Source of the DNA: a virus
Lineage: Duplodnaviria > Heunggongvirae > Uroviricota > Caudoviricetes
Strand: one strand, 5' to 3'
DNA: 14,862 nucleotides
IMG/VR virus record: IMGVR_UViG_2778261344_000012
Shown here: in pieces, positions 4,423-5,520 of the stretch
How the letters are laid out: every line of letters begins with the position of its first letter
How positions within the stretch are numbered: position 1 is the stretch's first letter
Notes under the pieces: model-generated
Told to the model about the DNA's origin: nothing
Seen by the model: the letters and a program-made list of their open reading frames with translations, nothing else
The model's database searches: none
Made by a program: the position numbers and the translations under genes

Positions 4423-4456
4423 ATTACTACTGTTGTGGATATCCAGATTGTTAAAG

Positions 4457-4484
4457 AGCTAAGCGTCCTGTAGGGCGCTTTTTT
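4457..4484 (+). terminator. Rho-independent terminator for the plus-strand moron
   Basis: AGCGTCCTGTAGGGCGCT hairpin followed by TTTTTTGTTG, about 35 nt after the stop codon at 4420..4422. Confidence 0.5.
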
Positions 4485-4650
4485 GTTGCTAACGAATCAT
4501 CCTGGACTTCATATGCCCCAGGCGGCTACTTCGTGGGCGTCCTGCCTGTTCGTTTTTGACATTTACTGACTGCTTACGACACATGCACCGTGTTGCAACC
4601 AGATTTTGTTGTAATCCTGTAGTTGGTCTGGAACAAAAGATAAAATTAAA

Positions 4651-4687
4651 TTGCGAGATATGCAAGTGATATTTGCGTGATATGCAA
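4651..4687. promoter_or_regulatory. OL-like operator pair with probable leftward early promoter (PL)
   Basis: Two 15-bp sites, TTGCGAGATATGCAA (4651..4665) and TTGCGTGATATGCAA (4673..4687), 22 bp apart, with inverted TTGC/GCAA half-sites. They are nearly identical to the site TTGCGTGATAAGCAA in the cI-cro intergenic region. Confidence 0.5.
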
Positions 4688-4695
4688 ATTTATAG

Positions 4696-4721
4696 GTAAT
4701 AAAAAGCCACCTTTCGGTGGC
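4696..4721 (-). terminator. Rho-independent terminator downstream of cI
   Basis: GCCACC-TTTC-GGTGGC hairpin (4706..4721) followed on the minus strand by TTTTTATTACC, about 20 nt after the cI stop codon. Confidence 0.5.
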
Positions 4722-4741
4722 CGATGGATGGGATATTGAGG

Positions 4742-5434
4742 TTAATTATGTCTCTTAAGGGTTTGCGACTGACTGATTAAGACCTTTCCAAAGACCATGA
4801 ATCGGTGTTCGTTTTCGCTAGTAATTCCCCATTCACGGTAAATCTGGTTATCAGAAATCACCAGCAGTTTGTCAGGAATCATTTGAAGTCTTTTAACGTA
4901 TATTTTGTCATCAAAACCAAAGACATATATACCATCACCATCAAACTGATTGATGCTGACATCAACGAAGATGAGATCTCCTGGCTCAATGGTTGGACAC
5001 ATACTGTCCCCACGAACGTTGATAACTTTGATGTGATTGGCTGGTCGTCCGCCGAACATTGATACAGCATTATCAGTTCTGTATTCGATGGCATGAATCA
5101 CATCAATGACATCACCGCCCTGGATAAGGCCATTTCCCGCACTGGCACTGATATCCAGCATTTCAATACGGAACACATCCTTCACCTGCGCAACATCCTC
5201 ATTATTACTGTTTTTATATACAGCATTACTTTTGTGGGCAGAGGTAAAGAGATCAGCAATATCAACACCTAAGCTCTTGGCAATATTACTCAGTGTTTGT
5301 TCGGTAAATTGTTTTTGCTTACCCGTTTCTAAGCGCGAGATGTTCGCCGCATCTACTCCTATCGCTTCAGCGAGATCGGCGATTTTCATGTTCTTCGCTT
5401 GGCGAAGTTGTCTGACTCGGTTTCCTATGTTCAT
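4742..5434 (-). CDS. cI: cI-type prophage repressor with HTH (XRE) N-terminal domain and S24 (LexA-like) autopeptidase C-terminal domain, 230 aa
   Basis: N-terminus MNIGNRVRQLRQAKNMKIADLAEAIGV is HTH-like; the C-terminal domain carries GDSMCPTIEPGD (Ser nucleophile) and YVKRLQ (catalytic Lys) motifs. It is divergent from the cro-like gene across an operator-bearing intergenic region. Confidence 0.85.
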   Translation of the reverse strand: MNIGNRVRQLRQAKNMKIADLAEAIGVDAANISRLETGKQKQFTEQTLSNIAKSLGVDIADLFTSAHKSNAVYKNSNNEDVAQVKDVFRIEMLDISASAGNGLIQGGDVIDVIHAIEYRTDNAVSMFGGRPANHIKVINVRGDSMCPTIEPGDLIFVDVSINQFDGDGIYVFGFDDKIYVKRLQMIPDKLLVISDNQIYREWGITSENEHRFMVFGKVLISQSQTLKRHN

Positions 5435-5454
5435 GCGTTTATTACATTTCTTTA

Positions 5455-5520
5455 TTGCGTGATAAGCAAATCAACTTGCGCAAAATAATTGCGTGAAATA
5501 ACATGCATAACGCGCAATAT
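5455..5520. promoter_or_regulatory. OR-like operator cluster with divergent PRM/PR promoters
   Basis: TTGCGTGATAAGCAA (5455..5469) plus further TTGCG(C/T) half-site repeats (5476..5518) in the 97-bp cI-cro intergenic region; GGAGG RBS at 5523..5527 before the cro ATG. Confidence 0.55.

Follow-up and report, generated by a model that had tools for sequence, protein, structure and literature searches.

Genes and terminators of the immunity region

The features located in the window (the whole stretch of 14,862 nucleotides analysed here) are listed in Table 1. The CI repressor displayed Pfam domains HTH_3 (1.2e-11) and Peptidase_S24 (6e-19) as well as Ala-Gly, GDSM and VKRL motifs, and was 42% identical to HK022 CI. 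Positions 4491-5900 were 99.3% identical to Shigella phage SfII (KC736978), whose matching region is annotated as cI (SfII_37), cro (SfII_38) and cII. Identity to E. coli 2011C-4251 was 100% over positions 4560-5535. The immunity region was found in 1040 out of 5426 complete E. coli genomes (19%), Stx2a phages included. An ORF of 58 aa with a TTG start (4489-4665) was rejected as a protein; it gave no family matches and overlapped both operators and structured RNA.

The initial annotation had placed a moron on the plus strand at 3931..4422 and two terminators, one following the moron and one following cI, all of which were found as located there. The PHROG profile match of the moron begins at profile position 9, on which basis its true start is probably GTG 3907. 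A search of the moron as a defence system with PADLOC gave nothing significant. The moron possessed its own factor-independent terminator. Both terminators displayed a U-tract on one strand each and look unidirectional, as initially claimed. Folding of the moron hairpin yielded -11.6 kcal/mol on the plus strand versus -7.5 kcal/mol on the minus strand, where it is weaker because a G.U pair turns into a C.A mismatch.

Table 1. Coordinates of genes, predicted regulatory sites and RNA elements in and around the immunity region
Feature	Position	Strand	Remarks
First early-left gene, phrog_204, YfdP-like	3074..3435	-	SD GAGGAG
Terminator stack before early-left genes	3455..3612	-	three hairpins
STnc100/PasD-like structured RNA segment	3572..3795	-	Rfam RF02076
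Exchangeable accessory cassette ('moron slot')	3837..4490	+	GC 42%
Inverted repeat, left arm	3870..3895		pairs with 4424-4449; 26 nt, 85%
Moron ORF, phrog_1244	3931..4422	+	PHROG profile match; coiled coil and CxxC...CxxC
Inverted repeat, right arm	4424..4449		directly past boxA in PL sense
boxA core GCTCTTTAACAA	4448..4459	-	PL sense; exact rrn type (rrn boxA: TGCTCTTTAACAA)
Antisense-cassette terminator	4461..4486	+	hairpin 4461-4480 and T6; minus strand: weaker hairpin just before boxA
Conserved PL-leader RNA, three helices	4487..4564	-	core 4552..4493
Predicted PL	4637..4665	-	-35 TTGCAT (4665-4660), 17-bp spacer, -10 TATCTT (4642-4637); start ~4628-4634
OL1-like operator TTGCGAGATATGCAA, cI-distal	4651..4665		exact motif; right arm is PL -35
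OL2-like operator TTGCGTGATATGCAA, cI-proximal	4673..4687		exact motif; 22 bp from OL1
cI intrinsic terminator GGCCACCGAAAGGTGGC and U5	4700..4722	-	hairpin 4722-4705, -13.2 kcal/mol; plus strand without U-tract
cI repressor, 230 aa, HTH_3 and Peptidase_S24	4742..5434	-	Pfam
Predicted PRM	5441..5469	-	-35 TTGCTT (5469-5464), 17 bp, -10 TGTAAT (5446-5441)
OR site A (OR3-like) TTGCGTGATAAGCAA	5455..5469		overlaps PRM -35 and spacer; always ATG+21
Predicted PR	5476..5504	+	-35 TTGCGC, 17 bp, -10 TAACAT; start ~5511
OR site B (weak, OR2-like)	5476..5490		left arm TTGCGCAA invariant
OR site C (OR1-like) ATGCATAACGCGCAA	5503..5517		full aTGC-N7-GCAA; overlaps PR -10 and start; always ATG+69
cro, 86 aa, HTH_3	5532..5792	+	Pfam 5e-10; divergent neighbour of cI

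Operator sites on both sides of cI

Matching 15-bp operators had been proposed at OL (4651 and 4673, 22 bp apart) and at OR (5455, with further half-sites), and these were recovered at the same positions. Exact matches to TTGCGNGATANGCAA occurred three times in the window (4651-4665, 4673-4687 and 5455-5469), and TTGCG/CGCAA half-sites were also present at 5476, 5489 and 5513-5517. In 2000 dinucleotide-preserving shuffles, the initially proposed pattern, observed three times, reached a mean of 0.001 and a maximum of 1; the looser palindrome TTGC-N7-GCAA was observed four times against 0.64 expected.

Since the pattern itself came from the data, conservation was the stronger test. Fifteen loci from at least eight enterobacterial lineages were compared (E. 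coli/Shigella, four Citrobacter, Salmonella ST64B, three Klebsiella, Trabulsiella, Buttiauxella and Pseudescherichia). The OR sites started at 21 bp (22 in one locus) and 69 bp (70) from the cI ATG, while the members of the OL pair were found 67-72 and 89-96 bp past the cI stop, 22-24 bp apart, the OL1-like site lying at 89-96 bp in 13 of the 15 loci. Operator arms were invariant and centres variable, and the recognition region of the repressor was near-invariant. The right arm of the weak OR site B is degenerate here and better in relatives from Klebsiella, Buttiauxella and C. amalonaticus. Shuffles and conservation together ruled out the repeats as a product of chance. Dyad-symmetric repeats thus occur on both sides of cI and overlap promoter hexamers, and the comparison supports their assignment as predicted operators of the adjacent HTH and Peptidase_S24 repressor, flanking cI as OL and OR.

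Predicted promoters

A program scan of 3300-5900 with a threshold of 9 of 12 returned no promoter. PL, PR and PRM are all weak consensus matches (3+4 or 3+5 of 12), for which this threshold was too strict; hexamers were therefore scored separately and conservation was relied on. By hexamer scoring, PL was the top minus-strand sigma-70 candidate in 3430-4760. Its -35 falls within the distal OL site, a geometry kept in 12 out of 15 loci. The hexamers and spacing of PR were identical in all 15 loci, as were the TGTAAT and the spacing of PRM. With an ATG only 7 nt past the PRM -10, the cI message probably has no leader, and it has no SD.

The leftward PL initially suggested to start at about 4640 corresponds well to this candidate, and the suggested cI regulon over PL and PRM/PR is consistent with position-conserved sites that overlap conserved predicted promoters in the 15 loci. 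An SOS-cleavable repressor (4742-5434) would bind as a dimer to 15-bp sites of the form TTGCG-N5-yGCAA. Those at OL (4651, 4673) would cover the PL -35 and its upstream flank. At OR, the PRM -35 would be covered by site A (5455), the PR -35 by weak site B (5476), and the PR -10 together with the start by site C (5503); PRM (leaderless cI) and PR (cro) would be controlled in this way. Site A is the best OR palindrome and overlaps the PRM -35, so that the filling order and any positive autoregulation may differ from those of lambda.

A structured RNA in the PL leader

The transcript predicted from PL begins with a conserved RNA of three helices, whose structure emerged from comparison of related sequences. 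P1 is formed by GCGAACA and UGAUUCGC and P2 by GGC and GCC, followed by the invariant single strand CACGAAGUAGCCG; P3 is a covarying 5-bp stem with the loop GGCRUAYGAAGN. Paired cells amounted to 97.9% versus 86.9% in shuffled data, with 40 double-change cells. The strand was taken from the promoter context: the RNA was found directly 3' of a strong promoter in 50 out of 88 contexts, and strong promoters on the opposite strand in none of the 88. G.U pairs in P3 were uninformative in this respect (473 versus 471 cells), and G.U wobble over the whole RNA slightly favoured the PL sense (5 versus 2 cells).

This RNA directly followed PL in most related phages and recurred across dozens of immunity types, among them that of E. 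coli K-12 e14, where it stands before ymfJ; SfII carries the same element. No Rfam match was obtained, even at E<=10 on a short stretch, and its core sequence was not found in the searched literature; it is a previously undescribed conserved PL-leader RNA, absent from Rfam. A second copy on the PR side, analogous to nutR or putR, was detected neither by pattern nor by covariance model. A hammerhead-like core, considered by eye, was discarded because CUGANGA is missing between P1 and P2. In the closely related mEp460/Stx2a_1447 group the RNA was not found in the DNA examined, and it is thus not indispensable.

The leader also bears on the role of the sites at 4651-4687. These might be auxiliary operators controlling no promoter and serving, for example, OL-OR looping, which would agree with the weak hexamers of PL. 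Such a role is very improbable, however: TATCTT was retained at exactly 17 bp even in lineages with cI only 66-69% identical, and the leader RNA, together with strong TTGACA promoters at the homologous position in other immunity types, indicates a real promoter.

boxA, inverted repeats and an exchangeable cassette

The boxA core matches the consensus in the sense of the PL transcript, at the point where this transcript would enter the antisense cassette. With up to one mismatch, 0.08 occurrences were expected by chance, and boxA was found on the PL side only. Among the 88 contexts, it was present in PL sense in 22 and in antisense in none. The two arms of the inverted repeat would form an RNA duplex of -31.3 kcal/mol (identical arm sequence in L162), compared with a shuffled median of -15.6.

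The cassette at 3837-4490 was swapped for other DNA in SfII, SfV and mEp460 and kept in PhiR49_1 beside a different immunity region; its boundaries were delineated by such comparisons, and phages that are otherwise collinear differ in whether they carry it, as with a moron. Similar inverted-repeat arms bracketed unrelated cassettes, and the hairpin-boxA joint with inverted-repeat flanks was common to at least four of them. Some cassette-bearing relatives were devoid of boxA. An empty site, recognizable by an intact AATCTGG...CCAGATT palindrome past boxA, was not encountered in IMG/VR.

The initial annotation had inferred mutually exclusive expression, with the moron on in lysogens and silenced by convergent transcription after induction. 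For the first part no basis was found in the sequence: the region upstream of 3931 displayed no sigma-70-like site above 7 of 12 and no convincing promoter. Silencing after induction is only a possibility, in which collision or antisense RNA would lower moron expression. The slot might instead be an insulated parking place without mutual exclusion, in which boxA with Nus factors and the inverted-repeat helix allow transcription from PL through or cut out the antisense RNA, so that each of the two transcripts would have little effect on the other. This proposal, which we hold tentatively, draws on the joint and flanks shared by at least four unrelated cassettes and on an arrangement generally known from rrn leaders (for the role of boxA see PMC12360218). 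It is weakened by the relatives lacking boxA and by the fact that, depending on context, boxA can also promote termination by Rho (PMC12360218).

From PL to the early-left genes

Upon loss of the repressor, PL would fire leftward from ~4630 toward the first early gene (ATG 3435), through an untranslated leader of ~1.2 kb. The transcript would comprise, in this order, the leader RNA (4552-4493), the hairpin and boxA (4459-4448), the cassette (3837-4490) in antisense, the STnc100-like segment and the terminators (3612-3455). The STnc100-like segment aligned over the full length of the model (E 6.3e-6) but reached only 40.3 bits where the gathering threshold is 47, and is at best a distant relative of RF02076. 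The terminator stack consists of an 11-bp stem with U6 (3612-3571), a ~24-bp hairpin (3572-3486) with UUUUG and a small hairpin (3474-3455), with a folding energy of -90 kcal/mol and a z score of -5.96. The initial annotation had overlooked the terminators at ~3612-3486 in the path of PL, as well as the reported lack of N.

N has been reported missing from SfII, SfV and SfIV (PMC3851460). No ORF for an N-like protein was present between PL and 3435, and with boxA on a single side the region does not display the N/nut arrangement of lambda. The first genes 3' of the leader in relatives were diverse and mutually unrelated, none being N-like, and no antiterminator protein could be recognised; crude counts of terminators between leader and first gene in these relatives were too noisy for use. 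As PL must pass strong terminators (~3612-3486) and the phage group is reported to be N-less, an antitermination device is needed.

Alternatively, PL transcription might go no further than the leader, the antisense cassette or the terminators at 3612-3486, and the early-left operon might use its own promoter inside 3437-3900, for instance that of the STnc100-like RNA. The strong tandem terminators lie 40-180 nt upstream of the first early-left gene, STnc100/PasD relatives were reported as separate prophage sRNAs (bioRxiv 10.64898/2026.05.13.724894), and a ~1.2 kb untranslated leader in a group without known N would also fit. However, scanning of the minus strand of 3437-3900 uncovered nothing comparable to PL and no sigma-70-like site above 7 of 12. 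Similarity to ST64B ended at 3781, with no conservation upstream of the STnc100-like segment, and the leader RNA and boxA, both in PL sense, speak for transcription that proceeds processively from PL. For ST64B, two genes and an ncRNA located downstream of cI are reported to be induced together with lytic genes (PMC7067206). A separate early-left promoter is accordingly regarded as unlikely.

In ST64B, whose repressor belongs to the same family and where the insert is missing, the order was PL, leader, early genes. This layout, the leader RNA after PL and the PL-sense boxA (4459..4448) lend good support to the initial proposal that the PL transcript would run antisense through the moron. The locus is best explained as an SfII/ST64B-type lambdoid immunity switch of HK022-like build, with PL directed leftward for ~1.2 kb antisense through the cassette (probability about 0.75). 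The switch itself is an ordinary new instance of the known lambdoid SfII/HK022-type repressor-operator layout, given its HK022-like organization, the 42% CI identity, the 99% match to SfII and the 19% prevalence in E. coli.

Significance

The leader RNA and boxA ahead of a reversed accessory gene constitute a more interesting result than the switch. Termination resistance of the PL transcript may be conferred by the leader RNA, by boxA with Nus factors, or by both. It is conceivable, although we consider it rather doubtful at present, that a large N-less group of enterobacterial lambdoid phages and prophages shares a previously undescribed cis device of this kind, made of the leader RNA and, in one subfamily, of the hairpin-boxA and long-range helix. 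Its members may include SfII/SfV/SfIV, ST64B, E. coli K-12 e14, mEp237, SPN3UB and ZF40. The long-range helix of that one subfamily may loop out the exchangeable antisense accessory cassette, and the immunity region of the window may exemplify a dedicated 'antisense moron slot' shielded by N-independent antitermination.

With the leader, there is a specific and testable proposal for the way in which N-less lambdoid phages carry PL transcription through strong terminators to recombination, excision and integration genes, and its arrangement suggests why accessory genes pile up, backwards, at one place. TTGCG-N5-yGCAA would be a further operator specificity for the HK022-like repressor family. 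Since this specificity is common (1040/5426 complete E. coli genomes), the predicted operators would be useful for immunity typing. An operator analysis of the SfII immunity type was not found in the searched literature.

Comparison with known systems

SfII displayed the same operators save one centre base in OL2. Unlike the window, it carried another cassette in the slot (SfII_36) and no boxA joint.

HK022 resembles the window in its 15-bp dyad sites, each made of two 5-bp arms around a 5-bp centre, in having two OL sites (24 bp apart, 22-24 here) and three at OR, and in lacking an N gene. Its arms are TGWAC/GTWCA, in contrast to TTGCG/yGCAA here. HK022 possesses putL/putR RNAs and Nun, and the window displayed no sequence similarity to these. 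A homology of the leader RNA with put was rejected, as no blastn match to the HK022 PL region was obtained and the architecture differs. Like put (PMC9378689), the leader RNA is a structured and presumably cis-acting RNA of ~60-70 nt located a few nt past the PL start of an N-less phage. In put, two stems form a V, and HK022 carries it twice, as putL and putR, whereas the leader RNA is a three-helix junction with a single copy per phage.

Common to lambda and the window are a divergent PRM/PR pair with three operators, a cI message without a leader (probable in the window), OL sites lying over PL, a repressor cleavable in the SOS response and, immediately past PL, an element of the leader. Lambda alone has 17-bp sites, three of them at OL, as well as N together with boxA-boxB nut sites, and carries rexAB after cI. 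The window differs by two OL sites, no N, a hairpin followed by boxA, and an antisense accessory cassette.

Leaders of rrn operons are ordered boxB-boxA-boxC, and their boxA precedes the RNase III stem around 16S rRNA. The window similarly displays a hairpin, then GCTCTTTAACAA, then the 5' strand of a long-range helix around ~0.55 kb of untranslated RNA, its context being a phage early operon instead.

Lambdoid morons and antisense prophage loci such as STMMW_20121 in ST64B (PMC7067206) are likewise present/absent cassettes with their own terminator, lower GC and an orientation antisense to early or lytic transcription of the phage. The moron of the window differs from these in having no recognisable promoter and in lying inside the PL leader, between conserved joints common to unrelated cassettes.

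Immunity region and its relatives

The genes and sites described here form the early control region of a lambdoid prophage. Shigella phage SfII matched window 4491-5900 at 99.3 % identity, and its genes there were annotated cI, cro and cII. Identity of the immunity region was ~89 % in the mEp460 / Stx2a_1447 / phiSTEC1575 group, ~74 % in Salmonella ST64B and ~69 % in Klebsiella phages; the same region was carried by 1040 of 5426 complete E. coli genomes. Tandem or inverted TCAAAATCTGAC copies in the O-like replication gene (6681-7622), which are probably origin iterons, caused a spurious match to Rfam 'mir-5880' at 6982-7056.

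Table. Features of the early control region (window coordinates)
Feature	Position	Strand	Remarks
~24-bp hairpin + UUUUG	3572-3486	minus	
11-bp stem + U6	3612-3571	minus	
Small hairpin before SD of first early-left gene		minus	
STnc100/PasD-like RNA segment	3572-3795	minus	40.3 bits, under Rfam threshold 47
Inverted repeat, 26 nt, bracketing the cassette	left arm 3870-3895 (or from 3868); right arm 4424-4449		right arm directly after boxA
Conserved three-helix RNA	4487-4564	minus	5' end of predicted PL transcripts; strong covariation
Predicted PL (leftward early promoter)	4665-4637	minus	TTGCAT-17-TATCTT; -35 = right arm of distal OL site
Repressor cI	4742-5434	minus	230 aa, HTH_3 + Peptidase_S24
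Predicted PRM (cI promoter)	5469-5441	minus	TTGCww-17-TGTAAT; -35 under site A (5455-5469)
Predicted PR (rightward early promoter)	5476-5504	plus	TTGCGC-17-TAAYAT; identical in 15/15 loci
Cro	5532-5792	plus	small HTH protein
CII	5785-6336	plus	CP76-type

Operators and promoters

The three exact operator sites of the initial annotation were recovered at 4651, 4673 and 5455, as were its additional TTGCG/CGCAA half-sites, which reached 5517. The pattern was seen three times against 0.001 expected from dinucleotide shuffles; as it had been derived from the same data, more weight was placed on conservation in 15 loci with a related repressor (E. coli/Shigella, four Citrobacter, Salmonella, three Klebsiella, Trabulsiella, Buttiauxella and Pseudescherichia). 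All 15 displayed a TTGC-N7-GCAA site starting 21 (22) bp and an aTGC-N7-GCAA site starting 69 (70) bp from the cI ATG. The OL pair was located 67-72 and 89-96 bp past the cI stop, with a spacing of 22-24 bp, in 12 loci; two others retained one site of the pair and Pseudescherichia none. TTGCGCAA, the left arm of the third and weak OR site (site B, 5476-5490), was invariant at ATG+42, and the right arm was better kept in relatives from Klebsiella, Buttiauxella and C. amalonaticus. Across the related loci operator arms were constant, central bases varied without restriction and the repressor's HTH region was nearly invariant, a pattern that is characteristic, at the sequence level, of operators for a dimeric HTH protein. 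This comparison supports the operator reading of the sites.

Operator sites coincided with sigma-70-like hexamers that were conserved and kept a fixed spacing. At predicted PR, site B was found on the -35 and site C (5503-5517) on the -10 and start. Hexamers matched the consensus at only 3+4 or 3+5, which is why an automated promoter scan reported no sites here. A leftward PL at OL, as first annotated, gained support from hexamers and spacing of the same geometry in 12 of 15 loci. It was the top minus-strand promoter candidate within 3430-4760, and the other location considered for the early-left promoter, 3437-3900, contained no comparable candidate. The cI ATG was found 7 nt past the invariant TGTAAT -10 and without a Shine-Dalgarno sequence (window 5432-5446; all 15 relatives), which would imply a leaderless cI mRNA in all of them, like the cI message of lambda.

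A conserved leader RNA

The leader RNA (core 4552..4493, minus strand) displayed a closing helix (GCGAACA/UGAUUCGC), a 3-bp hairpin followed by the invariant stretch CACGAAGUAGCCG, and a 5-bp stem, capped by a conserved 12-nt loop, whose five pairs were all affected by compensatory changes. Paired cells amounted to 97.9 % vs 86.9 % when shuffled, with 40 double-change cells, and the covariation signal vanished once partners were slid. Pattern scans matched the element in at least 120 IMG/VR contigs, where it adjoined dozens of different immunity regions (88 distinct upstream contexts among the matches listed). The -10 of a strong promoter ended 14-17 nt ahead of the leader in 50 of these 88 listed contexts; these promoters were TTGACA-like (median score 9.5/12.5), and no comparably strong opposite-strand promoter was found in the 88. 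The window type displayed 84 nt between -10 and element. ST64B was 88 % identical over window 4493-4552, with flanks that were not conserved.

No Rfam match was obtained for the leader even at E<=10, its core sequence was not found in the literature searched, and phage records carried no RNA or regulatory feature at its position. The site was unannotated in most of the records listed (among them SfII, SfIV, SfV, ST64B, phiNP, ZF40, YeP1-3, mEp237 and SPN3UB), a few phage records placed a hypothetical-protein CDS over it, and the copy of E. coli K-12 e14 (locus L165) was located between ymfK (cohE) and ymfJ (L165 6109-6187). There was one copy per phage, with no second one on the PR side. No N-like gene was seen after the leader, the following genes being mutually unrelated; SfII, SfV and SfIV were reported without N (PMC3851460). 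The leader is not universal within the immunity group, since its model found no match in mEp460/Stx2a_1447 and Klebsiella relatives and a match of only 13.6 bits in one Citrobacter relative (comparison loci for these results: L010 3302-3378; L002, L003, L005, L006).

The antisense cassette and its joints

Comparison with SfII, SfV, mEp460, ST64B and PhiR49_1 delimited an exchangeable cassette, or moron, at 3837-4490, with a GC content of 42 % vs 55 % and 48 % in the flanks. Its ORF (3931-4422, phrog_1244) encoded a protein with a coiled coil and CxxC...CxxC, for which no match was found among defence systems. Translation probably begins at GTG 3907, judging from an AGAG 8 nt upstream and a PHROG profile match beginning at profile position 9. 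A longer 259-aa TTG reading (3643-4422), similar to the extended CDS annotated in PhiR49_1, overran leader sequence that is conserved and non-coding. Sigma-70-like hexamer scoring found no moron promoter. A perfect 13-bp direct repeat, TCCCCAACAACAA, was present just upstream of the ORF (3847-3859 and 3880-3892, 33 bp apart) and overlapped the left inverted-repeat arm; it could be a regulator site or a piece of the cassette end. The moron terminator was a plus-strand hairpin (4461-4480) with T6, weaker and without U-tract on the minus strand; the cI terminator was one-directional too, in agreement with the unidirectional terminators annotated initially.

In PL sense, 33 nt past the leader, the reversed moron terminator formed a hairpin followed by GCTCTTTAACAA (4459-4448, minus strand), which we take to be the exact core of rrn boxA; the expectation for a boxA-type match with at most one mismatch was 0.08. 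A hairpin-boxA-ATCTGG unit (window 4445-4486, minus strand) was found at equal distance in 20-22 of the 88 contexts among the matches listed, every time in PL sense and never in antisense. An antisense ORF always came after it, and these ORFs belonged to at least four unrelated protein families, which argues that the hairpin-boxA unit is a backbone joint and not a component of one cassette.

As RNA, the arm duplex of the inverted repeat would reach -31.3 kcal/mol (computed on the identical arm sequence in comparison locus L162) vs a shuffled median of -15.6. Unrelated cassettes in other contigs kept arm complementarity, partly via compensatory differences (about -27 to -31 kcal/mol), and no empty cassette site was found. 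The repeat could act as a recombination joint or, in the transcript, form a long-range helix.

From the cassette to the first early-left gene

The first early-left gene (phrog_204, YfdP-like) started at 3435, which leaves ~1.2 kb between it and the predicted start of PL transcription. ST64B displayed the same order without cassette, PL being followed by the leader, then the STnc100-like segment and then the first gene. STnc100-family relatives are reported as prophage sRNAs (bioRxiv 10.64898/2026.05.13.724894). For ST64B, Owen et al. (PMC7067206) report that under peroxide and nitric oxide stress STnc1310, an ncRNA, and two genes lying downstream of cI rise together with the lytic genes. The e14 stretch homologous to the STnc100-like segment was annotated, perhaps wrongly, as protein gene ymfH (L165 5070-5381). 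The minus strand of 3430-3640 was exceptionally structured (-90 kcal/mol, z = -5.96). Its two terminator-like hairpins had overlapping U- and A-tracts and could form an attenuator-like alternative.

Proposed mechanism and comparison with known systems

The repressor would control PL, PR and PRM via the 15-bp sites, and its SOS cleavage would let PL fire from ~4630. We strongly infer that the PL transcript passes through the cassette in antisense; it would then have to pass the 3612-3486 terminators, so that an N-independent antitermination device would be needed. Leader RNA and boxA are the only conserved candidates for such a device, and boxA would work together with Nus factors (for the role of boxA, see PMC12360218). 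A long-range helix could loop out the antisense cassette RNA or let RNase III remove it. Mutually exclusive expression of moron and PL, as initially proposed, is possible, although no promoter was found for the moron; conservation of the joints points at least as strongly to insulation as to interference. The value for follow-up lies in the leader RNA, the boxA joint and the antisense slot flanked by inverted repeats.

HK022 CI was 42 % identical to the window repressor, and the HK022 sequence displayed the same plan, with 15-bp TGWAC-N5-GTWCA sites, an OL pair 24 bp apart and three sites at OR. Because this plan is shared, the switch is an uncharacterised operator specificity inside a known family, of HK022/lambda type. 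The leader RNA is similar in position to HK022 put, and the order of hairpin, boxA and candidate long-range helix recalls the rrn leaders.
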